From an uncultured Candidatus Saccharibacteria bacterium (GTDB taxonomy: Bacteria > Patescibacteriota > Minisyncoccia > Minisyncoccales > GWA2-38-27), in assembly GCA_964394985.1 (NCBI GenBank), contig CAYMZK010000001.1, forward strand, positions 1 through 61,956: a stretch of 61,956 nt of DNA. The letters are read 5' to 3'. Every line of letters starts with the position of its first letter. The stretch's first letter is position 1. The position numbers and the translations under genes were made by a program. The notes below the pieces were generated by a model. That model ran no database searches, had not been told where the DNA came from, and was given only the letters and a program-made list of their open reading frames with translations. This document shows positions 10,226 to 60,526 of the stretch, in pieces.

Positions 10226-11144
10226 ATAATGCTTCTATCCCAGGAAGCTTTTCTCCGGCTAAAAAAGCTAACATTGCTCCACCTCCTGTTGATACATGAC
10301 TAAATTTATCTCTTAATTTAAGTTTTTTTAAGGCATTTAGAGTATCTCCCCCACCAACAACGCTAAATGATTTTGAACTAGTAATTGCTTGAGCAATTTC
10401 TTTAGTTCCTTTAATGTATTTTTCTTTTTCAAACCATCCCATTGGTCCAGCCCAAACGACTGTTTTAGCTCCGCCAATAATCTTTTTGTATTCTTTTATT
10501 GTTTTTGGCCCAATATCGTAATTATCCAAATAATCGTTTGGTAAATGAAGTTTAACAGATTTTTTCTTAATTTCCAATCCTAATTTTCCACCAATCAGAA
10601 CATTATCGGCTAATTTTAAAAAATCATCAATAACCTTAGCTTTACTTTTGACCTTAGCTCCTCCAATAATAGTAACTAATGGCCTTTTGGGATTATCTAT
10701 TATCTTAGAGAGGTTTTTAATTTCTTTTTCCAATAATAGGCCCATTGCTGATGGTAGATATTTAGGAATGCTAACAATTGAAGCGTGTTTTCTGTGACAA
10801 ACCCCAAAAGCATCATTAATATAAATATCAGCTAAAGAGCTTAATTTTTTAGCAAAAGCTTGATTATTAGCTTCTTCTCCTTTGTTAAATCTTAAATTTT
10901 CCAAAAACTCTAAATTAGGATAGTCTTTAAATAAATCCCAAATCGGAGTTAAGCTTTTTCCATCGGATCGATGACTGGCTAGAATAACAATAGCCCTTTT
11001 TTTTAAAAGATATTCAATAGTGGGAATGGTTTGTTTTATTCTAAAATCATCTTCAATCTTCCTATCGCTCATAGGAACGTTAAAATCAACTCTTAACAAC
11101 ACTCTTTTGTTTTTGAAATTAAAATCCCTAATTGTCTTAATCAT
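10206..11144 (-). CDS. pgk: Phosphoglycerate kinase (short, 312 aa)
   Basis: RVDFNVP, SHRSDG, NDAFGVCHRKHAS, GGAKVKSK and STGGGAMLAFL motifs. Confidence 0.85.
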   Translation of the reverse strand: MIKTIRDFNFKNKRVLLRVDFNVPMSDRKIEDDFRIKQTIPTIEYLLKKRAIVILASHRSDGKSLTPIWDLFKDYPNLEFLENLRFNKGEEANNQAFAKKLSSLADIYINDAFGVCHRKHASIVSIPKYLPSAMGLLLEKEIKNLSKIIDNPKRPLVTIIGGAKVKSKAKVIDDFLKLADNVLIGGKLGLEIKKKSVKLHLPNDYLDNYDIGPKTIKEYKKIIGGAKTVVWAGPMGWFEKEKYIKGTKEIAQAITSSKSFSVVGGGDTLNALKKLKLRDKFSHVSTGGGAMLAFLAGEKLPGIEALYGNKKS

Positions 11145-33951: not shown

Positions 33952-34016
33952 GATAATTGAATCAAGATAATTATTGAATCAAGATAATAATTGAATCAAG
34001 ATAACAATTGAATCAA
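33952..34016. repeat. Iteron-like tandem array, four units of GATAA(N0-3)ATTGAATCAA
   Basis: Units lie at 33952-33965 (14 nt), 33966-33982, 33983-33999 and 34000-34016 (17 nt each), each with the inverted repeat TTGA-A-TCAA. Degenerate copies flank the array, and the last unit overlaps the stop codon of the upstream glycosyltransferase. Confidence 0.85.
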
Positions 34017-36307
34017 GAGAATTTTTGATTAATTAGTCTTTGATACTCTCTTTTCATTCTTCCAAAAACAATTTCTTTATTAAATTCTTTTAAAACTTTC
34101 TTTCTGCCATTCTTCCCCATTCTCTTGGCTTTATCCGGATTCTTTAAGATATAGATAATAGCTTTGGCTAACTCCCCCACATCCTTTAAAGGAATTAAAA
34201 TTCCTGTCTTGTTATTTTCTACAGTTTCCGGACAACCACCAATATTACTAACCACTACCGGTATCTCCATAGCTGAAGCTTCTAAGGTTACTGCTCCTAA
34301 TCCCTCTCTATGAGTTGGCAAGACAAAAACATCCATTAGAGGATAAATCTCATTAACATCTGAACGTTCGCCCAAGAATAAAATATTTTCTGAAATTCCT
34401 AGATCTTTGGCGATCTTCGGACTAATCCTGTTTTTTTTCTCTGGCTCTTCTGGACCAATGATGATTAATAAGGAGTTAGGAATTTCTTTTAAAATCATGG
34501 GTAGGGCTTCAAATAATTCGTAGAATCCTTTATCTTCCACTAACCTGGCGACAATACCAATAATCTTTTTATTCCGATCGATGCCCAATTCTTTCTTCTT
34601 GTTCAAAATATCTTCTTTACTAAACTTCTTGGGGTCAAATCTATCGGTATTGATATCTCTACCTAAATATCTAATTTGTTCTGGTCGGGCTACTTTTTTA
34701 TTAATAGCAATGTTAGTTACCGAAGCACTAATAGAAAAAATTAAATCTGAACAGTATCCAGCAATTCTTTGCAAGAAAAGAAAAAATCTTTGCCTCAAAG
34801 AAATCTTGCCCTGACTAAAATTAAAACCATGAATAGTATTAATAATAATTGGTATTCTAGCCAATTTAGCGGCTATTTGGCCCAAAATCTCCGGTTTCAA
34901 AGTATGAGTATGGACAATGTCAAATTTCTCTTTACAAAGATAAAAATAGAGTTTAAAGAAGGCAATTAAATCATATAACGGACTTACTCTTCTTTTTAGA
35001 GTAATGGTCTTGACCGGTATTCCTTGATCTTCAATTTCTTTAACTCTTTTGCCTGGAGAACAAATCGCTGAAACCAAATAACCTTCTTTTTGCAAAAACT
35101 TTAATTTATCATTAATCATAAACTTAAGAGTAATATCTGAACTAGCAATGTGACAAATCCTAATTTTAGAAAACTTATCATACTCTTCTTTAATTCTTGA
35201 AAAAACTAACTTTTCGTTAAAATTCTCTTCTATTCTCTTTCTACCTTTAGTCCCAAATTGTTTAACGGAATCATGAGTTAAAAAATAAATTAGTTTTTCA
35301 GTTAAAGCGTCAGCATTTTTTGGTGGTATTAAAGCTCCTGTTTCATTATCTACTACCGAATCAGGAACTCCCCCTACCTCACTAGCAATAACTGGAACTT
35401 CCATAGCCAAAGCTTCTAAAACTGAAACCGCTACCCCCTCTCTATATGAAGGCAAAACAAAAACATCCATTAGAGGATAAAGCTCTTCGACATCAGTTCT
35501 TTCTCCTAAATAGCAAACATTTTTTTCTATACCAAAACTTTTAAAGATAGTTGATGGATCAATTCTATCTTTCTTTTTGGGTTCCTTGGGACCAATTATC
35601 AAAAGCAAAGTATTGGGATATTCTTTTAAGATTCTACTAAAAGCTTCAAATAGTTCATAATATCCTTTATCTCTTACTAAGCGAGCGTTAATCCCAATAA
35701 TTTTTTTATTCGGATCAATACCAAGCTCTCTTTTTTTAACTAAAACATCCTCTTTGCTAAACTTTCTAGGATCAAACCTATCTAAGTCAACCCACCAACC
35801 CATATATTTTATTTTCTCCGGAGAACAAATTTTTTCTTCAATTGCTGTTTTAATATCTGGTTTGGCTACCGAAAAAACTAAATTAGAAAATTTAGCCGTA
35901 ATTTTTTCAATTAAGATAAAGAAGTTTCTTTTAAGCCAATGGGAATCTTTTTGAAAGTAAAAGCCAAGATTAGAATGAATTACTACCGGCACTCCAGCCA
36001 ATCTAGCTGATAGTACCCCCAGTAGTCCTGCCTTGGGAGTACTAGTGTGAACAATATCAAACTTTTCTTTACGAAGATAAGAATATAACTTAAATAGAGT
36101 AATTAAATCTGAAAAGGGACTAATCTTTCTTTTCATAGTAATTTGTTTAACTGGTATCCCCTCTTTTTCAATTTCATCTATCCATTTTCCTGGAGAACAA
36201 ACTGCTGAAACTGAATAACCTTCTTCTTGTAGATTTTTAATTTGATCTAATAAAAGAAATCTTATAGCAAAAGGAATAGTAGTGATCTGACAAACTCTTT
36301 TTTTCAT
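34013..36307 (-). CDS. Tandem double GT4 glycosyltransferase (two complete GT-B modules fused)
   Basis: Residues ~1-385 and ~386-764 are clearly paralogous (e.g. KFDIVHTSTPKAGLLG vs KFDIVHTHTLKPEILG, and MDVFVLPSYREG vs MDVFVLPTHREG). Confidence 0.85.
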   Translation of the reverse strand: MKKRVCQITTIPFAIRFLLLDQIKNLQEEGYSVSAVCSPGKWIDEIEKEGIPVKQITMKRKISPFSDLITLFKLYSYLRKEKFDIVHTSTPKAGLLGVLSARLAGVPVVIHSNLGFYFQKDSHWLKRNFFILIEKITAKFSNLVFSVAKPDIKTAIEEKICSPEKIKYMGWWVDLDRFDPRKFSKEDVLVKKRELGIDPNKKIIGINARLVRDKGYYELFEAFSRILKEYPNTLLLIIGPKEPKKKDRIDPSTIFKSFGIEKNVCYLGERTDVEELYPLMDVFVLPSYREGVAVSVLEALAMEVPVIASEVGGVPDSVVDNETGALIPPKNADALTEKLIYFLTHDSVKQFGTKGRKRIEENFNEKLVFSRIKEEYDKFSKIRICHIASSDITLKFMINDKLKFLQKEGYLVSAICSPGKRVKEIEDQGIPVKTITLKRRVSPLYDLIAFFKLYFYLCKEKFDIVHTHTLKPEILGQIAAKLARIPIIINTIHGFNFSQGKISLRQRFFLFLQRIAGYCSDLIFSISASVTNIAINKKVARPEQIRYLGRDINTDRFDPKKFSKEDILNKKKELGIDRNKKIIGIVARLVEDKGFYELFEALPMILKEIPNSLLIIIGPEEPEKKNRISPKIAKDLGISENILFLGERSDVNEIYPLMDVFVLPTHREGLGAVTLEASAMEIPVVVSNIGGCPETVENNKTGILIPLKDVGELAKAIIYILKNPDKAKRMGKNGRKKVLKEFNKEIVFGRMKREYQRLINQKFS

Positions 36308-37434: not shown

Positions 37435-38714
37435 TTAAAAATATTTAAATAAAGTTTAAGGTCTGACCTTTGAGGTAAAATTATATCTCTTATCTTGTTA
37501 CCGGATATCTTAGCATAAAAAACCAATTTCATTAAGAAAGAAAGGGTGTAGCAAATTGAAGTGGCCCAAGCTGCGCCAATAATGCCATGCTTAGGAATCC
37601 AAAATATATTTAAAACAATATTTAAAATAATAACAATGAAATTTGAATAAGCGCTAAACAAGGGTCTCCCTCTGCCATAAAGATCATAAGTAATAGTTCT
37701 TGATGCACTCATAGCAATAGTTCCAATTAACAGTATTTGCAGGGGCAAAACCGAATCTAAAAATCTAGTGCCAAATAGCAAAACAACCAACCATTTACTA
37801 AAAAGAAGAAGAATTAAAGAAATTACAGCAGTAACTAACAATACATTTCGACAAACAATCGGAGTCAACCATCTTGATTTTTCTTCTTTATTAGCAATTT
37901 CTGGGAAAAGAATCGTTGAAGCTGATTTTGAAATTAACCAAATGTTTTCAGAAAAATTAACAGCAATAGAATAAAGACCAACGGCTAAGGGGTTAATAAA
38001 AAAGTTTATTAAAAAGATGTCCACCCTAAAGAAAAGAAAGGCAAAAACCCCTCCTAAATAAGTCTTAAAACCATAATCAAAAACCTCCTTTAAATACTTT
38101 CTATTAAAGCTAAAGGCAATTCCTCCAGTTAGTTTAAGAGTCCAAGCAAAAAGAACAATTGAAGAAACCAGCAGTCCAATAATTTGAGAACCAATCACGG
38201 CCGTTAATCCATATTGAGGACAGATTAAAAGAAATAATAAAAAGAGGAAAAATAAGAAAGTGGGTAAAAAATATATCAAATTATATTTTTCAATCTTTCT
38301 TAAGCCTAATAAGATATTTGTAATCAAAGCGGTAAAAAACTGAAAAGGAATTAGAGTTAATCCTAACAACAGATACCTTTTACTAATTCCTTGAAACAAA
38401 ATATCACTAGCAGTAAAAATAATTATCCCTCCGAGAATTAAAGACAAAATGCTAGTAATAATTGAAAGAACAATGCTATTACCTAAAATTTCCTTAGCCG
38501 AATATCTTTTTTTCCCAATTAGATAAACCGAAGACGAACCAATGCCAAATTCAGTAAAAACAATTAAAATCCCTGGCAAAAGAAGCATCAAGGAATAGAC
38601 TCCCTTTCCTCCAGCCCCCAGGACTCGAGCAATAATAATCATTGTCCCCAAGCCAAAAACAAGCTTTAAAAATCTGGTTATAAAAGTAATGATTGTTTTT
38701 TTAGTAAAGTTCAT
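37416..38714 (-). CDS. wzx: Wzx-type (MOP superfamily) oligosaccharide flippase
   Basis: About 12 TMs and polysaccharide-biosynthesis-protein architecture. Confidence 0.75.
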   Translation of the reverse strand: MNFTKKTIITFITRFLKLVFGLGTMIIIARVLGAGGKGVYSLMLLLPGILIVFTEFGIGSSSVYLIGKKRYSAKEILGNSIVLSIITSILSLILGGIIIFTASDILFQGISKRYLLLGLTLIPFQFFTALITNILLGLRKIEKYNLIYFLPTFLFFLFLLFLLICPQYGLTAVIGSQIIGLLVSSIVLFAWTLKLTGGIAFSFNRKYLKEVFDYGFKTYLGGVFAFLFFRVDIFLINFFINPLAVGLYSIAVNFSENIWLISKSASTILFPEIANKEEKSRWLTPIVCRNVLLVTAVISLILLLFSKWLVVLLFGTRFLDSVLPLQILLIGTIAMSASRTITYDLYGRGRPLFSAYSNFIVIILNIVLNIFWIPKHGIIGAAWATSICYTLSFLMKLVFYAKISGNKIRDIILPQRSDLKLYLNIFKWLKKS

Positions 38715-39753
38715 GGACCCAATTAGCTAATATTTGACAAGCTTTGCTTATTTCTATTTCTAACTCTTTTTGTCTTTTTTTAATCGTTTCTTTTTTTTCA
38801 TCAGTCCAATCATTTAGTTTGGCAAAAACATCAATTTCTTTTCTAAAATCTAGAGCAAATTCCGAACAGTTATAAAAATCCATGATATCCTGATATTTAT
38901 CATTCCAACCAATACTAACTACCGGCACCCCACTAGAAAGAGCAGCCACTAAGGCATGATAACGAGAAACAACAGCAAAATCAGCTCCGGCAATAATTCC
39001 TTTTAAGTCTTGGCAATCCAGATCTTTCTCAATAGTTAACTCTTTATTTATTTCTCGACATAAAACTCTATCAGATTTATTTTTATCTGGCGAAAGAGAA
39101 TGAGGCAACAAAATAACTCTTTTATTATAATAATTAACTAAATCCTTAAATAAAGAAATATACTTTTTTCTATTTATTCTAGCGGTTACCGCGCTCGGAC
39201 ATAAAACAATATAATTTTTTAAATCAGCTTTATTTCCAGCTAAAGTTATAGCTATATCCGGAAAACTATAAACCGGCCTATTAGTAATCTTCTTACAATA
39301 AGAAGCAGACAACTTTCCTCTAGCCATAATACAAGGAAGCTTCTTAAATTCTCTTTTAGCGATAAGCCTCACTCTCCAGTCATCAAAAGGTCCGTAGGAT
39401 TGGATAAATCTAAAAAAAGGTTTTTGATACTTTCGAGCGTGAAGAAAACAACGATGTTCATAAAGAGAAGCGTACCATTTTCTAGTTCCGTCTCCGACAA
39501 AAGCAATACCATTTAAATTAACAATACAAAGACAGTCTTTTAAAGCTTTCCGATATTGCTCTGTTTTTTCAGAAACAATCTCTACGCCATAATAACTGGC
39601 CCACTTCTTTTCTAAATCATAATAGATAGGAGCTACGCTAAAAACAAAATCATAATCTAAATATTTTTTCATCTCTTTTAAAAAAGAAATCGCCATCGCT
39701 GCTGCTCCACGATTTCCACTAAAAGATAATCCTGTTACCAAAATCTTTTGCAT
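38701..39753 (-). CDS. Polysaccharide pyruvyl transferase (WcaK/CsaB family)
   Basis: N-terminal GNRGAAAM and C-terminal VVSRYHALVAALSSGVPVVSIGWNDKY. Confidence 0.75.
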   Translation of the reverse strand: MQKILVTGLSFSGNRGAAAMAISFLKEMKKYLDYDFVFSVAPIYYDLEKKWASYYGVEIVSEKTEQYRKALKDCLCIVNLNGIAFVGDGTRKWYASLYEHRCFLHARKYQKPFFRFIQSYGPFDDWRVRLIAKREFKKLPCIMARGKLSASYCKKITNRPVYSFPDIAITLAGNKADLKNYIVLCPSAVTARINRKKYISLFKDLVNYYNKRVILLPHSLSPDKNKSDRVLCREINKELTIEKDLDCQDLKGIIAGADFAVVSRYHALVAALSSGVPVVSIGWNDKYQDIMDFYNCSEFALDFRKEIDVFAKLNDWTDEKKETIKKRQKELEIEISKACQILANWVHELY

Positions 39754-41300
39754 AATCTATAAATAGGAAAATATATTGAATAAAGAATAAAAACTAGTTT
39801 TAAGGGTAAATTGGCAACTAAATACTGAAAAAAACCTCTTAAAGGCCGTTTTCTTGAAACCGGAAATCTTTCAAAACTAGCTTTCTTTAAAGACAAGGGG
39901 GCTTCTTTTAAATATTCTTTTCCCTTTTTACTTCTTATTATTATAACATTAGTACCCACTTTATCGCTTTTCATTACTTCAGGAAGCCAAGCATCACCAA
40001 AAGAAACATCAGCAAAACTAGCAAAATGATCATTACATTTTCGACAAGAATTAAGATAAAAAGGACCGCTAAAGCAAAAACTATATAGTATTTTATCTAA
40101 AAAAGATTTATCGCGATCTAGTAAAACTATTTCCTTGTCATCAACATGAGCAATAATTCTTCTTCCGGGCCAACCACCATTACGATAACGAATTCTATCT
40201 ACTTTCTTAATCTTTTTCCTCTGACACAAAAACTCTAAAGCCTGGTGGCTACTAACCCCTCCACAAAAAAGGCCGATCTTAAAAATATTCTGATAATCTT
40301 TTAAGGCTCTTAAATTACAAGGAAGGCCAACGACTGCTATTTTTTTATCTGGATATTTCTTTAAAAATCTCCAAACAGGAGAAAAATCTACGGGGCAATA
40401 AATGCTATCACCATAATTAATTAAATCATCAGGGTTATTAACAAAAGCCATTTGATGTTTTAGGCCACTCGAAGGAACAGCCACAAAAGCTCCTTCTATC
40501 TTGCCACTGTCAATTAAATATTTTAGCAAGGTTGTAATTGATCCTCCAGAAGAACATTGATATCTAGTATTATCATTTTTACTAAACCCAAGATAACAAT
40601 CAAGCATTTTCTTAATTCCTTCTTCTAGGTCTGTTTTGGGCTCACCTAAATCAGAAACAATTGGTCCGGCTTTAAAATCATCACCTTCAATATATTTTAC
40701 ATTAACTGATCTATACTTCTTAACTATCTCAATAACTTTATTTAAAGTGTAAACTTTCCCAAAACCAATATTATAAGCCCCCTTTTTATTCATAGCTAAA
40801 ATACTAATTTCAACAACATCGTCAATATAGATAAAATCTCTGGTTTGACCACCATCGCCCTTAATAACAACTTCTCCTTTTAAGATTTGAGGAATAATTC
40901 CAGAAGCCCATTGACCAGGACCGTAAACATTACTTAATCTTAAGATAAGATAGTCGTCAACTTCTTTAACTGTCTCCTCTATTTCTAAATTAGCTTTAGC
41001 ATAATCACTTTCCGGATTATTATAAATAGCTCCGCCGCTAGAAAAAAAGACAAGCTTAGAGTGATGTTTTTTGGCTAAATCAGCAATTAATTTAGCTCTT
41101 TCTATCCCAGAATCATTATTACCATGCTTTAATCCTATCGCTCCGGCTAAATTAAAAACAAGATCTGGACTAATTAAAAAAGATTTTTCTATATCATCTT
41201 CTCTGTCTGAAACAAAAACCTCATGCCCTTTGTTTAAAAGAGCTTCTTTTAAATGAGAACCAATAAAGCCCCTTCCTCCTATTAGTAAAACTTTCTTCAT
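39735..41300 (-). CDS. Fusion protein: NAD(P)-binding SDR epimerase-like domain plus an FrhB/FdhB (coenzyme F420 hydrogenase beta subunit)-like domain
   Basis: N-terminal VLLIGGRGFIGSHL Rossmann domain (~235 aa), then CSSGGSITTLL, VVGLPCNLRAL, GLFCGG and CRKCNDHFASFADVSFGDAW. Confidence 0.7.
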   Translation of the reverse strand: MKKVLLIGGRGFIGSHLKEALLNKGHEVFVSDREDDIEKSFLISPDLVFNLAGAIGLKHGNNDSGIERAKLIADLAKKHHSKLVFFSSGGAIYNNPESDYAKANLEIEETVKEVDDYLILRLSNVYGPGQWASGIIPQILKGEVVIKGDGGQTRDFIYIDDVVEISILAMNKKGAYNIGFGKVYTLNKVIEIVKKYRSVNVKYIEGDDFKAGPIVSDLGEPKTDLEEGIKKMLDCYLGFSKNDNTRYQCSSGGSITTLLKYLIDSGKIEGAFVAVPSSGLKHQMAFVNNPDDLINYGDSIYCPVDFSPVWRFLKKYPDKKIAVVGLPCNLRALKDYQNIFKIGLFCGGVSSHQALEFLCQRKKIKKVDRIRYRNGGWPGRRIIAHVDDKEIVLLDRDKSFLDKILYSFCFSGPFYLNSCRKCNDHFASFADVSFGDAWLPEVMKSDKVGTNVIIIRSKKGKEYLKEAPLSLKKASFERFPVSRKRPLRGFFQYLVANLPLKLVFILYSIYFPIYRLCKRFW

Positions 41301-49558: not shown

Positions 49559-50450
49559 ATTTCTCTAAATTGCCACTCATTTCTGACCTTAAGCCAGAAT
49601 TAACAATCAACTTCTCTAAGGCCCGATACCACCCCTCCCTAGAACCCACCAGCATTCCTGAATAATTATCTTTAATTATTTGACAATATGAAGGAGTAAA
49701 ATCAGCCACAATAGGAACCCCTAACTGAATAAAGGGATAAACTCTACCGGGATTATTAGAATACTTAAACCTAACTATATAGTCATATTTCTTTCTAACA
49801 TTAAATCCCTTAAAATGATAAATTGGCACTCTAGCCGGGATAATTCCAATATCAGAATTTCTAAATTCATCATAGTAGGCAGTTTCAGCCCATTGCAAAT
49901 GTTTAACTGGACACTTTTTAGGTAGTCCTCTTTCCCATTGACCATGACCTTTAATATTATACAAAGTGTAAAGCTCAATATTGTATTTCTCAATTAATTC
50001 ATCTAGAGCCCAAACAACATCTTTCATTTGCTCTAAATGCTTTTTATTGCCATGATAACCAATAATTATCTTTTCTTTATCTTTGTGCTCTTTTTCAATT
50101 CTTTTCATTTCTGGAAACATATAGTAAATGACAATGTTCTTGTTGTACTTCAAAAAGAACTCTCTTTGCTCAAGAGAGCTAACTAAAAGAAAATCGGCCG
50201 ATCTTACTTCCGGTTCTCTTTGAGGGGTAATTTTAGGGTCCATTAAGCCAACGGTAATATTCGGATTAATTTCTTTAGCTTTTCTAACTTGAGAATCAGG
50301 ACTCATAAACAAAACTAGATCATAGTTTTGATAATTATCCCAGTCATTTCTTGTAACCTCATAACCAGCATTCTGAAAACGAACGCTCAAATCCTCAACA
50401 CAAACACGCGAACCAGCCGAATTATAATTGGTATTAATTAGAATCTTCAT
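49488..50450 (-). CDS. Hypothetical protein, possible GT-B-like glycosyltransferase
   Basis: Two-Rossmann-like layout with GVPIVADFTPSYCQIIKDNYSGMLV near the C-terminus. The assignment is weak. Confidence 0.4.
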   Translation of the reverse strand: MKILINTNYNSAGSRVCVEDLSVRFQNAGYEVTRNDWDNYQNYDLVLFMSPDSQVRKAKEINPNITVGLMDPKITPQREPEVRSADFLLVSSLEQREFFLKYNKNIVIYYMFPEMKRIEKEHKDKEKIIIGYHGNKKHLEQMKDVVWALDELIEKYNIELYTLYNIKGHGQWERGLPKKCPVKHLQWAETAYYDEFRNSDIGIIPARVPIYHFKGFNVRKKYDYIVRFKYSNNPGRVYPFIQLGVPIVADFTPSYCQIIKDNYSGMLVGSREGWYRALEKLIVNSGLRSEMSGNLEKYVDNNCSPEINFKKFNEYLLQIV

Positions 50451-51198
50451 GATAAAAATGCAAATGTCCAGAAAAAGGAATATTTTCTTTAACCTCCCTA
50501 TTTTCTTCTATTGAATAACAAGAATAGCCTAAATTAAATAATAAAGAAACCAGTTCTTTTACTCGGTAGTGAGAGTTATCGCGATGACTTTCATGAATTT
50601 CTATAATCAAATCTGGAAGATTTTCTTTAATAGACCCGTAACAACCTTTAACAACCTCTAATTCCATGCCCTCAACATCCACCTTTATTAAGCTAGGAGC
50701 TGGCAAACCAAGATTGTCTAAGTTTTTTACAGTCACGTTTTTCATTTCAATATTTTTCTTTTCTTTATAATGCTCTTTCATTTCTTGATCGCAAGTAGAT
50801 CTAGCTAGGTTATCTGAAACAACCATCATTTCTAAAGAGCTTTCTTGATCACTAATACCAAAATTAAAAGCTTTGATTTTATCCTCTAAATTATTAATTT
50901 TAATATTCTTGATTAGCTGATCGTAGCAATAAGGATTAGGTTCAAAAGTATATACTTCTCCCTTATTTAAAAGCTTAGAAAATAACAAAGCATAAAAACC
51001 AAAGTGACCGCCAATATCAAAAATATTTCCGTCTTTAATGATCTTTTCAGTTTTACTAACAATATCTTTCTCAAAATCAGTAAAATATCTTTTATCTAAA
51101 TAACTACCATAAAAATACATTCCTTTTAAAGGGCCGTTTTTTATCTTTCTTTTTTTATTCTTATTTAAACCAAAAAATTCAAAAATTGCTTTTTTCAT
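50434..51198 (-). CDS. FkbM-family SAM-dependent methyltransferase
   Basis: FDIGGHFGFYALLF, VYTFEPNP and IKVDVEGMELEV. The start is placed at MKKAIFEF (51198). Confidence 0.85.
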   Translation of the reverse strand: MKKAIFEFFGLNKNKKRKIKNGPLKGMYFYGSYLDKRYFTDFEKDIVSKTEKIIKDGNIFDIGGHFGFYALLFSKLLNKGEVYTFEPNPYCYDQLIKNIKINNLEDKIKAFNFGISDQESSLEMMVVSDNLARSTCDQEMKEHYKEKKNIEMKNVTVKNLDNLGLPAPSLIKVDVEGMELEVVKGCYGSIKENLPDLIIEIHESHRDNSHYRVKELVSLLFNLGYSCYSIEENREVKENIPFSGHLHFYHEDSN

Positions 51199-51275
51199 AT
51201 TAATTAATAGTAGCATATTATAACTAAAAATTAAAGAAAAAAATCCGTTTAACACAAAAAGGTTAAATTAGCAAG

Positions 51276-52037
51276 TTATATCCGAGTTATTTTAACATTA
51301 GGCAAATTAGGGGCAAAAGAAGGAGAAGCGGTTATGAAATAAAAATTAACATCAGGACATTTTTTAGCTAAATTGGTAATGTAGTTTATCATTTTATCTT
51401 TAGCTTCAGTGGCTAAATTAGTTTCTTGAGGATTCAATGGTCCGGTCATATATGGCGTCTCATAAAAATCCATGCCAGCAACATAAACATTTTTCTTCTT
51501 TAGTCCAGCAGCGGCATAAGCAACTGCAATAACTCCGCTATTATTAGCTCCTTCCAAATAAGAAGCTAGCTCTTCGGGCAAAAGATCGGTTTTAAAACCA
51601 AACTTTTCAGTTCTATATATTTTTCTTGGTGAATAAATATCTTTGTCAGAGCCATTTGGCTTTAATCGAGAAATAATATATCGATAAATATTATATTTTA
51701 ATAAATACCAAAAAGGAAGCACCCCTTCACCAATATTAACCATATGAATAATCCTCTTCCCTTTTAGTAAAGATCTTACCGGTTCTGATTTTAATTCTTT
51801 AACCTCTGTATTTACAATCAAGAAGTCTTTAACAAAATCAAACTGATCGGCCTTGGCTAAAGAAACCCCTCTTCCCAAAACAACGATACTGTCACTTTTT
51901 CCCGCCTGTGACATATATTTCTTCTTTCGATAGTTTAAAACTACACCCATCAAAATCATTATTGGAAAAAGAATAATCTCAATAATGATTTTAATTATTT
52001 TTTTGAGTAATTTATGTTTTTTTACAAACTCTCTCAT
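51276..52037 (-). CDS. Membrane-anchored putative nonulosonate (sialyl-type) transferase, GT42/Cst-like
   Basis: IVVLGRGVSL...DFLIVN and SGVIAVAYAAAGLKKKNVYVAGMDFYETPY resemble Cst-II IIAGNGPSL...FRCN and SGVYMCAVAIALGYKEIYLSGIDFYQ. It lies adjacent to the NeuB-like gene. Confidence 0.45.
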   Translation of the reverse strand: MREFVKKHKLLKKIIKIIIEIILFPIMILMGVVLNYRKKKYMSQAGKSDSIVVLGRGVSLAKADQFDFVKDFLIVNTEVKELKSEPVRSLLKGKRIIHMVNIGEGVLPFWYLLKYNIYRYIISRLKPNGSDKDIYSPRKIYRTEKFGFKTDLLPEELASYLEGANNSGVIAVAYAAAGLKKKNVYVAGMDFYETPYMTGPLNPQETNLATEAKDKMINYITNLAKKCPDVNFYFITASPSFAPNLPNVKITRI

Positions 52038-52891
52038 TAGTATCCTCTTAATTTTTTCCTTACTTCTTTTTCTCCTTCAGTTACCACCCTATTACCGTCT
52101 CCTAAAAAATCATTTACGTCTTTGATTCTTTTTCTTAATAAATCCATGGCGTGAACTTCTAGACTAGCTTTTTGATCAGTTCCCCACATGTTATGATCAA
52201 GAGTAATGTGTCTTTCAACAATATTAGCTCCCAGAGCAACAGCACAAACTGAAGGCTCTAAATCATATTCATGACCACTATAACCAATAGAACAACCGTA
52301 TCTTCTCTTAAGAGCTTTGATGCAATTTAAATTTAATTCCTCGGAAGGAGCTGGATAACTAGAATTACAATGCATTAGGGCGTATTGAGCATTATATTTT
52401 TCTAATATTGCCACCGCATTATCAATTTCTTCTAAAGTGCTCATCCCGGTTGAAATTAATAACGGTCTTCCCGATTTAGCCGATTCAATTAATAATTCTT
52501 CTTCAGTTAATTTAGCTGAAGGAATTTTTATAAAAGGAATGTTGTAGTTTAGAATAAACTTCAAGCTCGGAATATCCCAAACAGAAGCTGTCCAATCAAT
52601 GGGCTTATCTTTACAGTACTTATCAATATAATCATATTCGGCTTTTCCAAACTCCATCTTCTTTTTATAATCTAAATAAGTCATTTGTCCCCAAGGCGTA
52701 GACTTGGGCTTATTCTTTTGATCTTCGGGAACACAAAGATCCGGTTCTTTTTTCTGAAACTTAACACAATCCCACTGACAACCGGAAGCAGCGTCAATTA
52801 ATTTCTTGGCAATATTAAGATCAGCATTATGATTAATACCAATATCACCAATTAAATATACTTTTTTACTTGAATTCTTAAAATCTAACAT
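52037..52891 (-). CDS. neuB: NeuB-family nonulosonic acid (sialic/KDN-type) synthase lacking the C-terminal SAF domain
   Basis: IGINHNADLNIAKKLID, VKFQK, ISTGMSTLEEID, LMHCNSSYP, GYSGHE and ERHITLD. At 284 aa it ends at the linker. Confidence 0.85.
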   Translation of the reverse strand: MLDFKNSSKKVYLIGDIGINHNADLNIAKKLIDAASGCQWDCVKFQKKEPDLCVPEDQKNKPKSTPWGQMTYLDYKKKMEFGKAEYDYIDKYCKDKPIDWTASVWDIPSLKFILNYNIPFIKIPSAKLTEEELLIESAKSGRPLLISTGMSTLEEIDNAVAILEKYNAQYALMHCNSSYPAPSEELNLNCIKALKRRYGCSIGYSGHEYDLEPSVCAVALGANIVERHITLDHNMWGTDQKASLEVHAMDLLRKRIKDVNDFLGDGNRVVTEGEKEVRKKLRGY

Positions 52892-52898
52892 AATGTCA

Positions 52899-53450
52899 CT
52901 ATCTTAATGCTAGAGTTGTTACATCTATATCTCTAGCTTCCAAAATCAAATTACACAAATCTCTAATAGCTCCATTTCCCCCCTCTCTTGGAGCGATATA
53001 ATCAGCAATCTTTTTGACCACTTCTTCTGCTTGATTAGGAACAGCAGCAAACCCAGCTTTTTTCAACATATTGTAATCAGATAAATCATCACCCATTATT
53101 GCTAATTCTTCCCAAGTAAGATTATTCTCTTTCAACCAATTATCTAAAGTTTCTACCTTGCCCTTTCCTTGTGGCCCGGTAAAAATTCCCATCTTGGCCC
53201 ACTTCCCTTCTTGAACTGAAGGAAGATTATTTAGCTTTTCACCAATCTTTTCTATAAAGCCAGTTTTTTCAGAACTAACAATAGCTACTTTAATACCAAT
53301 GGCTCTTAACAAGGAAATCCCTTGGCCATCAACATGACTTCTTTCTTTATACGCTTCTCCTTTTTCTGGATCAATAAAAACCCTTCCGGAGAAGAATACT
53401 CCGTCGCCATCAAAGGCAACTGCTTTAATGTTTTTTAATTTTTCATTCAT
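52899..53450 (-). CDS. KdsC/YrbI-family HAD phosphatase (3-deoxy-sugar-phosphate phosphatase)
   Basis: FDGDGVF, HVDGQGISLLR, GDDLSDYNMLKKAGFAAVPNQA and GGNGAIRDLCNLIL. Confidence 0.85.
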   Translation of the reverse strand: MNEKLKNIKAVAFDGDGVFFSGRVFIDPEKGEAYKERSHVDGQGISLLRAIGIKVAIVSSEKTGFIEKIGEKLNNLPSVQEGKWAKMGIFTGPQGKGKVETLDNWLKENNLTWEELAIMGDDLSDYNMLKKAGFAAVPNQAEEVVKKIADYIAPREGGNGAIRDLCNLILEARDIDVTTLALR

Positions 53451-54070
53451 ATTTTTTCTTATTTAATTTATTTTTTAATAATTGTTCCATTATTTGCCAA
53501 TCAGACTCTTCATCTAGTTCAAAATAAGTTTGTTCTGGCATCTCGTAAGTTGTCATTTTTCCGGAAAGTCGACATTTAGTTTCAAGCAAATTCTTTTTAG
53601 AGGTAATATAGAAAGCACCATTTTCGATTAAAAATCCGTCGAACTGTTGTCGCATCGGTCTTTTAATTGGATCGTAGTTAACTGGCTTTGCCTCTAGATC
53701 TTGTTCTTGCCAAATAAACCTTTTTTGTTTGACCACTGAGAGCAAACTATCACAATTTCCCTGAAAATACTTTTTAATTCCATTTTCTAAATGATCGCTC
53801 TCTAAAAGAGGTTGGAGCTAAGTCAGTAGCTGTTTCCTCTGATCTACTAATTACTTCTAATTTATCATTATTGATCTCATAAACTTTACTTTTAATTAAA
53901 TCTGAGTCAGTACTAATAAAGACCCTATCAATAGAAGGACAATTAAGCGCGCTTTCAATCACCCAAAAAGCCAGAGGCTTTCCAGCAATCTCTTTAATAT
54001 TTTTTAAAGGAATGCTCTTGCTATTTCCTCTTAAAGGTATAAAAGCAACTGTTTTTAATCCTTTTTCCAT
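53443..54070 (-). pseudogene. neuA: CMP-nonulosonate / acylneuraminate cytidylyltransferase (NeuA/KdsB fold), disrupted by a frameshift
   Basis: The N-terminal fragment (53774-54070: AFIPLRGNSKSIPLKNI...STDSD...ETATD) stops at 53774. The C-terminal part (LQPLLESDH...NGAFYI...ELDEESDW) is open in the +1 frame from 53817 to 53443. Confidence 0.75.
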
Positions 54071-55851
54071 GTTGTTGCCATTTCTTGAAATTGGCGGTTA
54101 TTTTCTAATAAATAATTATAATTTCCTTGAGCGATTATTCTACCTTTATCTAATAAGTATAAATTATCACAATGCTCTATTGTTTTCAAGCGGTGAGCAA
54201 CTATTATCATTGTTTTTAGTTTGGCAACATTATCTATTGCTTTTAAAACCGCTTTCTCGGTTAGATTATCCAAAGAACTAGTAGCCTCGTCAAAAACTAA
54301 TATTTCTGGATTATGATAAAGCGCTCTAGCAATACTAATTCTTTGTTTTTGCCCACCACTCAATCTAACTCCTCTTTCGCCAATAAAAGTATTGTAACCA
54401 GAGGGTAGTTCTTTTTCAATAAAGTCAGCAATATTAGCAATTTGAGCCACTCTTTTAATTTGATTCATATCTATTTGATCACTAGGAATTCCAAAAGCAA
54501 TGTTACAAGCAATAGTATTATCAGATAAATAAACTTGCTGCGGAACATAGCCAATGTTTTTTTGCCACCTTCTAATATTACTTCCATTTATTTCTTGATT
54601 ATCCACTTTAATACTGCCCCGACTCGGAGTAAAGAGTCCTAAAATTAAATCAATTAAAGTGGTTTTTCCTCCACCAGTTGCTCCAACAATACCAACCGAA
54701 GAACCTTTAGGAACTTCGAGGGTTATATCGATTAAAACATTTTCTTTTTTATTAGGGTAAATAAAGCAAACATTATTAAAAGAAATCTTTTTCTTAAAGG
54801 GGAGAGGCTCTACTTCTTCAATTAAATCAGTTTTTTCTTTAATATCATCATAAATCCTATTTAAAGTTGCTGTATTAAATTGAAAATGAGTAATAGAGCG
54901 AAAAATTTCCTGCAGGGCCGGCATTAGACGATAACCAGCAAAAACAAAAAAACTGACTATTGGGATAATTTCTTTGCCCGTTCCTCCCAAGCCCATTAAA
55001 ATCAAAATTAAAATAATCACTCCCCCAAAAGCCACTATTTCAATTACATAACGAGGAAGATTGACCACTATATAATTCCAAGCTTGCAGCTTAGAAAATA
55101 AAGAAGAATGGTAAGAAAATTTATCAAAGAAATAATTTTCCCTACCCAAGGCCTTGATATCTTTAATTCCTCCAATTGCCTCGCTAACAGAAGTAAAGCG
55201 TCCGGTATTAGCTTGAAAGCGCTTTTCTCCTCTTTCTTTTAAAGTTGCTTTTAAATAAGAAAAGGTTAATCCATAAAAAATCATAAAAAGAACAAAAGCC
55301 GACAGAGCCACCACTGGATTAACAACTATTAATATTATAAAAATAACTAAAACCATAATACTACTAGTAATTAAAGTCAACAATGGCATAAAGAAGCTAT
55401 TGGTAAGCTGTTCTACTTCTGAAAGAATGTTTTTTGTTAAATCCGAGCTGTGTTTGTCTAGAAAATAAGCATAAGGAAAAGAAAGATATTTTTTTAAAAG
55501 ATCTAAAGATAAGTTGTGATTTTTTTTCCAAACAAAACTAATTTTTAACCAAATAGATAGAGCGAAAATGAGGTTGCTAAATATGATCAATATTAAAACA
55601 AGAAGGCCAAGAAAAATAGTAAAAGAATAAGTAGTAGAAAAATTAAAAAGATTGTAAAAATAATTTAAGAAGTTGTTCTCAAAAATTAATTTTTGATCCA
55701 TCACTAAATTAGTAAATGGGATAATAGAGGCGATGCTCACAGTCTGAAGTAACGCCGAAAAAATAGCAATCATAACAATGCCCAAAAATTCTATCTTTTC
55801 TTTTCTATCAAAAAGACTACTTATTTTTTTTAAGATTGTGTAACCGACCAT
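54055..55851 (-). CDS. ABC exporter, fused TMD-NBD (MsbA/PglK-like)
   Basis: Six N-terminal TMs, GATGGGKTT, LSGGQKQRISIARAL and LVFDEATSSLD. Confidence 0.88.
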   Translation of the reverse strand: MVGYTILKKISSLFDRKEKIEFLGIVMIAIFSALLQTVSIASIIPFTNLVMDQKLIFENNFLNYFYNLFNFSTTYSFTIFLGLLVLILIIFSNLIFALSIWLKISFVWKKNHNLSLDLLKKYLSFPYAYFLDKHSSDLTKNILSEVEQLTNSFFMPLLTLITSSIMVLVIFIILIVVNPVVALSAFVLFMIFYGLTFSYLKATLKERGEKRFQANTGRFTSVSEAIGGIKDIKALGRENYFFDKFSYHSSLFSKLQAWNYIVVNLPRYVIEIVAFGGVIILILILMGLGGTGKEIIPIVSFFVFAGYRLMPALQEIFRSITHFQFNTATLNRIYDDIKEKTDLIEEVEPLPFKKKISFNNVCFIYPNKKENVLIDITLEVPKGSSVGIVGATGGGKTTLIDLILGLFTPSRGSIKVDNQEINGSNIRRWQKNIGYVPQQVYLSDNTIACNIAFGIPSDQIDMNQIKRVAQIANIADFIEKELPSGYNTFIGERGVRLSGGQKQRISIARALYHNPEILVFDEATSSLDNLTEKAVLKAIDNVAKLKTMIIVAHRLKTIEHCDNLYLLDKGRIIAQGNYNYLLENNRQFQEMATTWKKD

Positions 55852-56453
55852 ATTTCGCCAAAATTAATTTTATAATCCTCAATCCTTAACCCAGTTTCAT
55901 TTATTTCTTTTTTAAAACTCTCTAGAGTATATTCCGTAAAATGTCCATTATCAAGTCGCCACTCTACTCCCATTTCTTTTTTATACATAGCGATCCAACT
56001 TCTGTTAATCATTGGCACTCTAATTAAAATCTTTGGAGCTAAATTCTTTATTTTAGTTAAAAACTCTTTTCTATTTTCTATATGTTCTAAAACATTAGAA
56101 AGAATAATAACATCAAATTTTTTATCAGTTAAATCTTTGGTAACATCACCAACCAAATACTTTATATTGGAAGCATTATGCTTTTTAATAGCCACATCAA
56201 TGCTACTTTGAGAAAAATCAACTCCAATCACCTCTTTGGCTTTTTTAGAAACATCATAGGCCAACTCTCCCTTCCCGCAACCAACATCTAAAACTCTATC
56301 TTCCAAGCTTATGTTGTCCAAAAAGAATTGATGGTAATTAGTTAAACGATGTTTTGGATGAGTGCCACCCTCTACCTTTTTAGCAAAATAAGAAGCTAGC
56401 TGGTAAGAGCGATTATGAAGCTTTAAAATAAATTTTAAAATTAGTTTATTCAT
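55830..56453 (-). CDS. Class I SAM-dependent methyltransferase
   Basis: VLDVGCGKGELA motif I and the DVIILSNVLEH post-I region. Confidence 0.85.
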   Translation of the reverse strand: MNKLILKFILKLHNRSYQLASYFAKKVEGGTHPKHRLTNYHQFFLDNISLEDRVLDVGCGKGELAYDVSKKAKEVIGVDFSQSSIDVAIKKHNASNIKYLVGDVTKDLTDKKFDVIILSNVLEHIENRKEFLTKIKNLAPKILIRVPMINRSWIAMYKKEMGVEWRLDNGHFTEYTLESFKKEINETGLRIEDYKINFGEIWSVTQS

Positions 56454-57123
56454 TTATAATCAAATACATTATTGTTGGATAAGAAAAGTCTAAAGAGCTA
56501 AATAGTTTAACAAAAAAATAATACAGCCCTCCTCTCTTTTGTCTAACTCCTATTATTCTTTGGATAATAGTAAAAGAAAAAAAATGCAAAATAGAAGAAA
56601 AAAATCCTCCTATCCTATAAATCACAACCTCTTTACCGAAAATATCAAAGAGACCCTTTAAATCATATCTCCTATAACCATGATTAAAGTATAAACAATA
56701 GGACCACTTAGCCGGCACTAAATGAACTTGAAATCCATCTGATTTTAAAAACCTTTTGGCGTTATTTACAGCTTGTCGATCGTTTTCCATATGTTCTAAA
56801 GAACAAAGAGAAAGGATCAAATCAAACTTTTGATCTGTTTCAAATTCTTCAGCTTTAGCAATAACTAATCTAGAATCAGCAAAATGACTAAAAGAATCAA
56901 AGCTAGAATGCTTCTTAAGATCCACTCCAACATAATTCACCTTATACCCCAAATTGTAAAAGATTTCTCTAATATATCCGGAACCACAACCAATATCTAA
57001 AACATCTATGTCTTTTTTAACAATAATCTTTTTTAAGTTTTCTTTAAAAAAACGATCAGCGTATATTCTTGATGGACTCCCCTTCTCGTCTTTAATTTTT
57101 TTAGGCCTGAAGTATTTTATCAT
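56446..57123 (-). CDS. Class I SAM-dependent methyltransferase
   Basis: VLDIGCGSGY motif I and DLILSLCSLEH. Confidence 0.8.
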   Translation of the reverse strand: MIKYFRPKKIKDEKGSPSRIYADRFFKENLKKIIVKKDIDVLDIGCGSGYIREIFYNLGYKVNYVGVDLKKHSSFDSFSHFADSRLVIAKAEEFETDQKFDLILSLCSLEHMENDRQAVNNAKRFLKSDGFQVHLVPAKWSYCLYFNHGYRRYDLKGLFDIFGKEVVIYRIGGFFSSILHFFSFTIIQRIIGVRQKRGGLYYFFVKLFSSLDFSYPTIMYLIINE

Positions 57124-60130: not shown

Positions 60131-60160
60131 ATAAAAAAGCTCGTACTTATAGCACGAGCT
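60131..60160 (-). terminator. Intrinsic terminator closing the candidate ncRNA
   Basis: Minus strand reads AGCTCGT-gctataagt-ACGAGCT followed by TTTTTT. Confidence 0.75.
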
Positions 60161-60165
60161 TTTTG

Positions 60166-60526
60166 CGGCATCACATGTTCTTCAAACTTTTAAGTGGTTA
60201 AAACCACCCTTTCCCGAGGCTTAACCCTTACCCCGGTTTTCCTTCTCACTACGAGCAACTCCTCCGAAGCCTTGAATCCTTTGATGTTAAAATCTCTGTG
60301 GGTCAGTTTCGTATCTCCGCCGAAGCGTATGCGAAGACATGCTTGAAACGTTTGCTTCAGATCTCCATGACCCACTCCCACGTTTTGCCAGGGAGGAGAT
60401 TCTCCTTCAAACAAGACAACTAATGCTCCAGTGTGGCAAAAAAGCCACCTAGAATCTAACCCTTTTTCATCCATGATAATCTCCTTATTACAAAGGGTTG
60501 AAAATTAATGTGATGCCGAAAGAACT
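60166..60526 (-). ncRNA. Unassigned structured RNA candidate (~350-360 nt), GC-rich island
   Basis: An 11-bp terminal helix (60166-60176 with 60508-60518) is extended by TCA/TGA and ACCCTTT/AAAGGGT. Internal helices are GTGGGTCA/TGACCCAC, TGTCTTCGC/GCGGAGATA, CCGGGG/CCTCGG, CTCCC/GGGAG and GTGGC/GCCAC. C(UUCG)G loops and G-U pairs appear only in the minus sense. It has its own promoter and terminator. No RNase P, tmRNA or SRP signature was found. Confidence 0.6.

Follow-up and report, generated by a model that had tools for sequence, protein, structure and literature searches.

We favor, at a probability of roughly 55%, the reading that four adjacent genes make up a Kdn-type nonulosonic acid module in a surface polysaccharide operon, with its activation gene broken; the substrate, product, donor and acceptor are those that we infer from the sequences. 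The genes lie in a stretch of DNA of 61,956 nucleotides, analyzed as a whole and called the window here. For each protein, family and fold are established, the gene order is conserved, and the synthase and the phosphatase are linked across phyla. A pathway of this type is already known, and the family of the GT42-like transferase is uncharacterized. An earlier sequence-only reading had assigned the four genes to families, and these assignments stand. The substrate can so far be predicted only, and with a broken activation gene the module is probably crippled in this genome.

All four genes were located next to each other on the minus strand, as had been read (Table 1). They are embedded in a polysaccharide operon of roughly 30 kb, and the E-values of the family matches are far beyond chance level. 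The best explanation for this setting is a CPR/Patescibacteria-like host bacterium and a large operon for a cell-surface polysaccharide. The FkbM-family methyltransferase next to the module is a possible sugar O-methylation enzyme. Rfam scans of a GC-rich island at approximately 60150–60480 gave no convincing family.

Table 1. Genes of the module and their immediate neighbors in the window.
Feature	Position	Strand	Assignment or evidence
GT42-like membrane-anchored protein, 253 aa	51276–52037	minus	candidate transferase for a CMP-activated nonulosonic acid
SAF-less NeuB-family synthase, 284 aa	52037–52891	minus	PF03102; proposed Kdn-9-phosphate synthase
YrbI/KdsC-type (C0, HAD-IIIA) phosphatase, 183 aa	52899–53450	minus	proposed nonulosonate-9-phosphate phosphatase
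Cytidylyltransferase pseudogene (CMAS / CMP-Kdn-synthetase type)	53443–54070	minus	two ORF fragments; PF02348 remnant
Fused TMD-NBD ABC exporter, directly upstream of the module	54055–55851	minus	Pfam ABC_membrane and ABC_tran
FkbM-family methyltransferase, directly downstream of the module	50434–51255	minus	PF05050 (E=1.2e-20); TIGR01444 (1e-28)
Two class-I SAM methyltransferases (context)	55830–57123	minus	Pfam; synteny with L022 and L027

The synthase matches the NeuB family (PF03102) over residues 31–267 with 241 bits (cut-off 22.1; E=1.3e-71), and the Pfam scan found no SAF domain in it, which agrees with the sequence-only reading. Its best NCBIfam match, the NeuB_NnaB equivalog TIGR03569, covers positions 1–274 of the 329 in the model with 234.5 bits, yet this is below the curated cut-off of 399.65. 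The top match in the PDB, 6ncs, is likewise SAF-less. The identity to NmNeuB is 27%, and in the alignment the GYSGH and ERH motifs keep the equivalents of H215, E234 and H236 of that enzyme. The equivalent of E25 is an Asp, a residue that just 4 of 119 close homologues have there. The Kdn-9-P synthetase of Prymnesium parvum is about 31–32% identical to the synthase (E=1e-37). In an NJ tree with a small reference set (without BT1714, human NANS and LegI), these two enzymes cluster with 82% bootstrap, and NmNeuB, PseI, SpsE and 6ncs fall outside; no grouping with non-nonulosonate enzymes was seen. The P. parvum enzyme accepts Man-6-P as its sole substrate and rejects ManNAc-6-P and Ara-5-P (PMC6200933). 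More than 7,900 homologues of the synthase were found, many of them 65–80% identical, and they are very common in CPR and in many other phyla. A CPR genome that carries this gene is therefore less unusual than had been implied.

Both the profile and the PDB matches place the phosphatase in the HAD-IIIA/YrbI type, in line with its earlier description as a KdsC/YrbI-type HAD enzyme. The PDB matches are KdsC, YrbI, BT1713 and the C-terminal domain of CMAS (3ewi, 2e-18), and the HAD-IIIA model TIGR01662 gives 4.6e-10 and 39.7 bits, under its curated cut-off of 44.6. The alignment shows the HAD motifs DxD (FDGDGV) and motif IV, GDD..D (GDDLSD). As markers of a Kdn-9-P phosphatase we take Glu56, Lys67 and the carboxylate-binding Arg64 of BT1713, which are attributed to Lu 2009 and Daughtry 2013. 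Comparison with this active site, which the sequence-only reading had proposed, gave a divided result. When the phosphatase is aligned to BT1713 (reference sequence from the supplement of PMC6200933), the equivalents of Glu56 and Lys67 are kept in addition to the DxD motif, but the equivalent of Arg64 is an Ile, which is followed by a 12-aa insertion. The enzyme scores about as high with the KdsC models as with that for Kdn-9-P phosphatase, and the curated cut-offs of both are missed: 89.2 bits on NF058599, the BT1713-based equivalog (cut-off 180), 85.2 on TIGR01670 (cut-off 106.95) and 82 on NF007019 (cut-off 208).

The pairing of a NeuB-type synthase with a KdsC-type phosphatase, to which attention had been drawn before, is conserved across phyla. 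A YrbI-type HAD gene was found by tblastn near the synthase in 11 of 17 genome loci, in which the synthases are 58–69% identical. These loci span Staskawiczbacteria, Omnitrophota, Planctomycetia, an archaeon, Bacteroidetes, Akkermansiaceae, Firmicutes and Marinimicrobia. All the linked phosphatases have the Glu and Lys that match Glu56 and Lys67 of BT1713. One of them (L016), encoded beside a synthase of 60% identity, passes the Kdn-9-P phosphatase equivalog with 183.8 against the cut-off of 180; another (L012) scores 161.

The cytidylyltransferase gene is a pseudogene in this genome. It is split by a frameshift into two ORFs, 53774–54070 (98 aa, the N-terminal part of PF02348) and 53443–53745 (100 aa), and there is no intact frame of approximately 220–230 aa with the (L/I)QATSP motif. 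DNA alignment with the orthologues of L001, L014 and the intact L027 showed a single deletion of 71 nt in the window gene, with the junction at approximately 53810–53817. With it the LQATSP motif is gone and the frame is shifted; the lost segment encodes ..TE..MLEFA....LIQATS. The sequence-only reading had listed a NeuA/KdsB-fold cytidylyltransferase here. It was correct as to the family, but it overlooked that the gene is not intact. An artefact of assembly or sequencing, with an intact gene in the living organism, would be another explanation for the deletion. All the evidence comes from metagenome assemblies, and the Logan contig may share reads with the window. We nevertheless consider an artefact quite improbable: a second assembly made with a different assembler (contig L025) agrees with the window at every position over 9,103 nt (100% identity), deletion included, the 71-nt gap is clean and lies within otherwise well-aligned coding DNA, and the L001/L002 orthologue carries a separate, different frameshift. 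With its cytidylyltransferase broken, the module cannot activate its sugar, unless a second such enzyme, encoded elsewhere in the genome, takes over. No second one was found by tblastn in the window, nor in the 4.3 kb past the window end in L025. The module is thus probably crippled in this genome, and it may be in early decay.

The type of the cytidylyltransferase can still be read from the remnants and from the orthologues. The remnants share 45% identity with the CMP-Kdn synthetase of P. parvum (PpNeuA), and the intact L027 orthologue, of 223 aa, shares 46% with it. In the PDB, the L014 orthologue matches PpNeuA (9t4z, 2e-49), mouse CMAS (3e-35), bacterial NeuA (1e-13 to 1e-20) and KdsB (3e-9 at best). 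The nearest enzymes are CMP-Kdn synthetase and CMAS, and KdsB is far away. This distance from KdsB argues against a Kdo-like, 8-carbon sugar as the product, for which the NeuB-type synthase would replace KdsA on arabinose-5-P and a KdsC-type phosphatase would follow. The equal scores of the phosphatase on the two kinds of model would suit such a product, as would an SIS-family sugar-phosphate isomerase encoded between the synthase and the phosphatase in L003, but this isomerase is GmhA-like and not KdsD-like. KdsC enzymes have an Arg in a TGR motif at a position where the linked phosphatases all have Glu, and these also have the Kdn-type Glu/Lys pair. Ara-5-P, moreover, is not accepted by the P. 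parvum relative (PMC6200933). We regard the Kdo-like product as very improbable.

A Pfam scan of 48 of the 54 ORFs in the window that have 120 aa or more, together with the two short cytidylyltransferase fragments, found no NeuC, NanE or ROK kinase. None of the other six ORFs exceeds 208 aa, and they are too short for a NeuC-type epimerase, which has a length of about 380 aa. The absence of a NeuC-type epimerase had been noted from the sequence alone, and it holds for the scanned ORFs. The Pfam lists of nine related loci likewise contain no gene for ManNAc or ManNAc-6-P supply (NeuC, NanE, GNE or ROK kinase). The absence of dedicated precursor genes in the scanned ORFs fits a central-metabolite substrate such as Man-6-P. 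It argues, in both the window and the nine loci, against an animal-type Neu5Ac-9-phosphate module that would use ManNAc-6-P and yield CMP-Neu5Ac. Such a module could draw on mouse CMAS as the second-best PDB match of the cytidylyltransferase orthologue, on NeuB_NnaB as the best NCBIfam match of the synthase, and on the match of the phosphatase to the CMAS C-terminal domain. However, the best match of the cytidylyltransferase is a Kdn enzyme, and ManNAc-6-P is rejected by the SAF-less P. parvum relative (PMC6200933). We therefore rate the Neu5Ac-type module as unlikely, and the Kdn type is retained as the preferred reading.

The 253-aa protein has an N-terminal hydrophobic helix and the motifs LGRGVSL (54–60), SGV (167–169) and GMDFYETPY (188–196), which bears out the TM anchor and the Cst-II/GT42-like motifs described before. 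It has no match in Pfam (CST-I family included) or NCBIfam at E≤0.01. A profile of 18 homologues searched against the PDB found GT42 sialyltransferases only (Cst-II 1ro7 with E=0.006, Cst-I, and 9c08), and E=0.006, over residues 162–222, is the best value reached. With the AF2 model (pLDDT 85), the top Foldseek match is Cst-II 2x61_A (E=1e-4, probability 1.0, TM 0.51, 20% identity), the sole match below 1e-3. The choice between GT42, GT52 and DUF115, which the sequence-only reading had left to a profile search, is thus for GT42 by both profile and fold, and the model supports a predicted sialyltransferase (GT-A variant) fold. Identity as a DUF115/Maf protein or a Kdo transferase was considered and dropped, with no such match in Pfam, the PDB profile search or Foldseek. 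Residues R56, G57, S59, N76, G168, G188, D190, F191, Y192, Y196 and N247 are invariant family-wide. Y192 and Y196 align with Tyr156 and Tyr162 of Cst-II, and their conservation across the family is 88–89%. Where Cst-II has its catalytic base, His188, the family shows no conserved histidine. At least 257 representative clusters belong to the family, and some of its members are fused to a methyltransferase. As a tentative proposal, with the odds against it, this would be a new glycosyltransferase family that moves Kdn or a methylated Kdn derivative from a CMP donor onto a lipid-linked acceptor. Combined with the SAF-less synthase and the Glu/Lys phosphatase, it would point to a widespread, as yet unrecognized ability of CPR bacteria and many other uncultivated phyla to make acidic surface glycans of the Kdn type.

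In the related metagenome contig L027, the gene order is ABC exporter, cytidylyltransferase, HAD phosphatase, NeuB and GT42-like protein, all intact. The ABC exporter takes the same position in L001, L003, L022, L026 and L027, and L001, L003, L022 and L027 have methyltransferases, FkbM or others, on the flanks of the module. The closest relatives of the window locus, L001 and L022, have no phosphatase gene next to the module and have radical-SAM/SPASM and SDR genes instead. The related loci contain cytidylyltransferases of three different types; thus, the products may differ between loci. In related CPR loci, the same synthase and phosphatase are also surrounded by genes for an Fe-alcohol dehydrogenase, a class-III aminotransferase, methyltransferases and radical-SAM enzymes. 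These genes would suit a different or further modified ulosonic acid (methylated, terminally aminated, or another sugar-phosphate product) in place of plain Kdn. The set of an Fe-alcohol dehydrogenase and an aminotransferase parallels the KdnB/KdnA route to Kdo8N. The methyltransferases that flank the window module, the methyltransferase fusions of some GT42-like proteins and the atypical subtype of the window phosphatase, with its insertion and without Arg64, point the same way. The window, however, has neither the Fe-alcohol dehydrogenase nor the class-III aminotransferase, and decoration of Kdn after its synthesis would go with the main explanation and not compete with it. We hold such a product to be unlikely, and we keep to a Kdn-type module.

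In the proposed pathway, the SAF-less NeuB-family enzyme would join PEP and a hexose-6-phosphate, most likely mannose-6-P, to give Kdn-9-P, and the YrbI-type HAD phosphatase would take off the 9-phosphate. A cytidylyltransferase of the CMAS/CMP-Kdn-synthetase type would then form the CMP-sugar. At the cytoplasmic face, the membrane-anchored GT42-like protein would pass the sugar on to its acceptor, either lipid-linked or a polymer. The neighboring methyltransferases possibly decorate the sugar, and the adjacent ABC exporter would move the product out.

If this pathway is correct, the phosphorylated Kdn route is found not only in B. thetaiotaomicron and a haptophyte alga (and, for Neu5Ac, in animals). 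CPR/Patescibacteria and many environmental phyla would commonly have it as a horizontally mobile module within their surface-polysaccharide operons, and ultra-small symbiotic bacteria may show acidic sugars to their hosts. Literature searches turned up no relevant work on how Patescibacteria/CPR make nonulosonic or sialic acids. Thousands of proteins now labeled 'N-acetylneuraminate synthase family protein' would need better annotation, and a new transferase family could be set up for the GT42-like proteins. With its broken activation gene, the locus of this genome is also a snapshot of a module in decay or turnover and is not proof of sugar display by this organism.

Among known systems, the Kdn pathway of Bacteroides thetaiotaomicron comprises the Kdn-9-P synthase BT1714, the phosphatase BT1713 and the CMP-Kdn synthetase BT1715, according to the account of Wang et al. 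2008 given in PMC6200933. The window module shares with it the three-enzyme logic, the adjacency of the genes and a YrbI C0 HAD phosphatase with DxD and the Glu56/Lys67 equivalents. It differs in the phosphatase (89 bits against 180, Ile at the Arg64 position and the 12-aa insertion), in the added GT42-like transferase and in the dead cytidylyltransferase. The synthase resembles that of P. parvum in being SAF-less and in a common β2-α2 loop insert, the KFQKR, GYSGHE and WGTDxxASLE motifs, and a basic C-terminal tail. The P. parvum enzyme, however, is from a eukaryote, and the identity is only about 31–32%. The classical NeuB/NeuC/NeuA clusters (N. meningitidis SiaC, E. coli K1) have in common with the window module the NeuB TIM barrel with its metal-binding His pair and ERH motif. 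In contrast to these clusters, the window module has no SAF domain and no NeuC but a phosphatase, and its cytidylyltransferase type is nearer to eukaryote-type enzymes than to bacterial NeuA. The transferase shares with Cst-II (GT42) of Campylobacter jejuni the fold and the order of the motifs GxGxSL, N, (S/T)G, GxDFY, Y and PN, with S167/G168 aligned to Ser132/Gly133. At approximately 20% identity, with an N-terminal TM anchor, an Ala for Arg129 and no conserved equivalent of His188, it differs from Cst-II and belongs to a family of its own.

The four genes at 51276-54070 on the minus strand lie within an unbroken run of minus-strand genes extending from approximately 29.6 to 60.1 kb, which is a surface-polysaccharide locus. 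Neighbouring focal genes either overlap or have no more than a few bases between them, and are therefore read as one operon. Housekeeping genes (FtsEX, RF2, LepA, MurJ, PGK, SecDF, UvrABC, SecA, MurB) are found elsewhere in the window, and the GC content is 28-37% overall in 2-kb windows.

Genes of the module and of the polysaccharide locus around it
Feature	Position	Strand	Basis
GT42-like protein, 253 aa, N-terminal hydrophobic helix	51276-52037	minus	profile and fold match
NeuB-only synthase, 284 aa	52037-52891	minus	PF03102, E=1.3e-71
YrbI/KdsC-type HAD phosphatase, 183 aa	52899-53450	minus	NCBIfam and PDB matches
Bac_transf initiating transferase	within ~29.6-60.1 kb run	minus	
DegT aminotransferase	within ~29.6-60.1 kb run	minus	
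PglF-like dehydratase	within ~29.6-60.1 kb run	minus	
Wzx-type flippase	within ~29.6-60.1 kb run	minus	
Pyruvyl transferase	within ~29.6-60.1 kb run	minus	
GT4 and GT2 enzymes, several	within ~29.6-60.1 kb run	minus	
Methyltransferases	within ~29.6-60.1 kb run	minus	
UDP-glucose dehydrogenase	within ~29.6-60.1 kb run	minus	
Fused ABC exporter	within ~29.6-60.1 kb run	minus	

The run also encodes a 764-aa tandem pair of complete GT4 glycosyltransferase modules (34013-36307) and a 521-aa protein in which an NAD-dependent epimerase/dehydratase domain is joined to FrhB/FdhB-like (F420 hydrogenase beta) domains (39735-41300), and whose gene adjoins that of a polysaccharide pyruvyl transferase (38701-39753). 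A GC-rich island at 60150-60480 (45-49% GC against approximately 30% in its surroundings) is flanked by an HTH gene and a Wzy_C-type membrane protein. Its 94-aa ORF gave no family match, no Rfam family reached threshold in the island, and its minus strand folds with a z-score of -2.3. Towards the start of the window, a protein with a recombinase zinc-ribbon domain (26-976) abuts tRNA-Gln(CTG) (962-1035), and together they may be an integration site or its remnant. The release factor 2 ORF (2604-3404, minus strand) is without its N-terminal part; upstream of it, at 3576-3582 on the same strand, is a CTTTGAC motif, the usual prfB programmed +1 frameshift site. A TrwB-like coupling-protein homologue is encoded at 11137-12711.

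The synthase has no SAF domain and scores under the curated NeuB and PseI equivalog cut-offs. Its closest solved structure, 6ncs (290 aa), likewise lacks SAF. More than 7,900 homologues were found, the best 120 at 65-80% identity. Named matches among the closest are mostly from Nealsonbacteria, Wildermuthbacteria, Staskawiczbacteria and Parcubacteria, with one from Caldisericia; that most are CPR groups supports a CPR origin. SAF-less NeuB proteins of environmental bacteria have been recorded earlier with no function assigned (PMC8208679). The Kdn-9-P synthetase of the haptophyte Prymnesium parvum is also SAF-less, and it has in common with the window synthase KFQKR, a β2-α2 loop insertion, SVWD, GYSGHE, WGTDxxASLE and a basic C-terminal tail. 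NmNeuB, PseI and SpsE, in contrast, differ at all of these motifs. In a neighbour-joining tree with few references, the window clade joins a sister clade (L003, L019 and L020, loci on other contigs) with 100% bootstrap, and the P. parvum enzyme with 82%; NmNeuB, SpsE, PseI and 6ncs fall outside this group. The nonulosonate assignment of the sequence-only reading holds at the level of gene family: with these few references and at 82% bootstrap, the synthase groups with a Kdn-9-P synthetase and not with non-nonulosonate enzymes. At the position of NmNeuB Glu25, Asp is found in the window synthase, in that of the related locus L001 and in only two more of 119 homologues; the L027 relative has Glu there.

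Man-6-P is the only sugar accepted by the P. parvum synthetase (PMC6200933). A route through Neu5Ac-9-P is disfavoured, and we consider it unlikely: the P. parvum relative rejects ManNAc-6-P, and neither the window ORFs scanned against Pfam (48 of the 54 of at least 120 aa, plus the two cytidylyltransferase fragments) nor the listed Pfam matches of nine related loci include a gene that would supply it. In the related locus L003, a GmhA-like SIS isomerase (6913-7491; 196 bits, just below the gmhA cut-off of 209) is placed between the NeuB-only synthase and the YrbI-type phosphatase. It could be a source of sugar phosphate in the manno configuration, such as Man-6-P made from Fru-6-P.

On the Kdn-9-P phosphatase model the window phosphatase reaches 89 bits, where the cut-off is 180, and on the KdsC model 85 (cut-off 107). 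Its PDB matches are KdsC, YrbI, BT1713 (the Kdn-9-P phosphatase of Bacteroides thetaiotaomicron) and the C-terminal domain of CMAS. A scan of species-representative genomes gave 17 loci with synthase relatives, from very different phyla; setting aside a second, more distant clade, the 14 full-length relatives are at 58-69% identity. A YrbI-type phosphatase is also present at 11 of the 17 loci and immediately adjoins the synthase at six. Of the linked phosphatases, that of L016 scores above the curated cut-off of the Kdn-9-P phosphatase equivalog and that of L012 close to it. We aligned the linked phosphatases with BT1713, taken from the supplement of PMC6200933. Glu and Lys occupy the positions of BT1713 Glu56 and Lys67 in every one aligned. 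Daughtry and co-workers (2013) reportedly found this pair to be a mark of the Kdn-9-P phosphatase lineage, with KdsC enzymes carrying Arg at the first of the two positions. Only two of the aligned proteins, that of the window and its Staskawiczbacteria relative, lack a counterpart of Arg64; they have Ile or Val there and a 12-aa insertion in common.

The cytidylyltransferase was typed with its intact orthologue from a Lachnospiraceae locus (L014). Among solved structures this orthologue matches PpNeuA best (9t4z, 2e-49), which is the CMP-Kdn synthetase of P. parvum, and mouse CMAS second (3e-35); E-values for bacterial NeuA enzymes range from 1e-13 to 1e-20, and those for KdsB do not go below 3e-9. 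Identity to PpNeuA is 45% for the window remnants and 46% for the orthologue at the related locus L027. Being nearest to PpNeuA and CMAS and far from KdsB, the enzyme points to a nine-carbon, sialic-type sugar and against Kdo. A Kdo-like route is highly improbable in view of this enzyme type and the Glu/Lys pair of the phosphatase. On an archaeal MAG contig (L009, 20-883), a fusion of the C-terminal part of a cytidylyltransferase with a YrbI-type phosphatase is encoded just upstream of the synthase, its domains being ordered as in animal CMAS.

The sequence-only reading was right about the family of the cytidylyltransferase, but a single intact gene is not present. The window cytidylyltransferase is a pseudogene, and this dead activation gene is a notable local feature. 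What is left of it, at 53443-54070, is two ORFs of 98 and 100 aa that do not share a reading frame. We aligned the DNA with the orthologues of L001, L014 and L027 (intact, 223 aa). The sole gap against L027 is one 71-nt deletion, which removes the segment encoding ..TE..MLEFA....LIQATS and shifts the frame. An assembly artefact is very unlikely, as the same split gene occurs in L025 (Logan, SRR7048227), which comes from a different assembly pipeline and is 100% identical to the window across 9,103 nt. The L001/L002 orthologue (L001 6454-7136) has its own 1-nt frameshift at another position, after ..WTIETA; the activation gene was therefore broken independently in two related lineages. The rare Glu-to-Asp change of the synthase is common to both. 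By tblastn, no second PF02348-type gene was detectable across the window. With activation genetically broken here, either complementation in trans keeps the module going or it is in decay, the odds being about even.

The GT42-like protein contains the motifs quoted for it from sequence (LGRGVSL, SGV, GMDFYETPY). Neither Pfam nor NCBIfam has a model that matches it. When a profile built from 18 homologues was run against the PDB, every match was a GT42 chain (Cst-II, Cst-I or a lipooligosaccharide α-2,3-sialyltransferase); these matches are weak (E=0.006-0.07) and lie in the region SGV...GxDFY...Y. With its AlphaFold model (pLDDT 85, pTM 0.85), Foldseek returned Cst-II as the sole match below 1e-3 (E=1e-4, probability 1.0, TM 0.51, 20% identity); human ST6GALNAC2 was next (probability 0.96). 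Both searches agree with a sialyltransferase-like fold. An exhaustive profile search gathered 257 representative clusters, many without a TM helix. R56, G57, S59, N76, G168, G188, D190, F191, Y192, Y196 and N247 are invariant across 129 clusters and reproduce the motif order of GT42. The catalytic base His188 of Cst-II has no conserved His counterpart in these 129 clusters, and Arg129 of Cst-II is replaced by Ala. None of ten representatives scanned matched a Pfam glycosyltransferase model; two have an N-terminal methyltransferase domain, which fits with the methyltransferase genes flanking the module. The distant representatives P0173 and P0194 have such a fused domain, of class I. We regard the family as related to GT42 and as yet uncharacterised.

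As a unit, the module is conserved. In L027 the genes stand in the order of the window, and all are intact: GT4, two methyltransferases, ABC exporter, cytidylyltransferase, HAD phosphatase, NeuB and GT42-like protein, with an FkbM methyltransferase, GT2 and GT4 further downstream. L022 (Candidatus Nealsonbacteria) is syntenic with the window, but radical-SAM/SPASM and SDR genes replace the phosphatase and its cytidylyltransferase is of another type. In two Staskawiczbacteria-type loci (L023 2134-10327, L024 2144-10253), genes for cytidylyltransferase, class-III aminotransferase, glyoxalase-like protein, methyltransferase and Fe-alcohol dehydrogenase lie upstream of phosphatase and synthase, and those for two radical-SAM enzymes (one SPASM, one B12) and a LIC12162-family protein lie downstream. 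An Fe-alcohol dehydrogenase and a class-III aminotransferase around such a core are reminiscent of the KdnB/KdnA route to Kdo8N. This Kdo8N-like logic suggests that their product may be an ulosonic acid with a terminal amino group or some other modification. With the dehydrogenase, aminotransferase, glyoxalase-like and radical-SAM genes around the same core in related CPR loci, a modified or different ulosonic acid is the window product at somewhat less than one chance in five.

From the families, folds, synteny and linkage shown here, we infer substrate, product and acceptor for the most likely pathway, one to Kdn. The synthase would condense PEP and Man-6-P to Kdn-9-P, the phosphatase would release Kdn, and a cytidylyltransferase would form CMP-Kdn. 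The GT42-like enzyme would then transfer Kdn to a growing glycan at the membrane, possibly methylated, before export. Our literature searches brought up no paper describing a pathway of this kind in CPR/Patescibacteria. The biosynthetic triad of the window follows the model of BT1713-1715 of B. thetaiotaomicron and of the P. parvum Kdn pathway.
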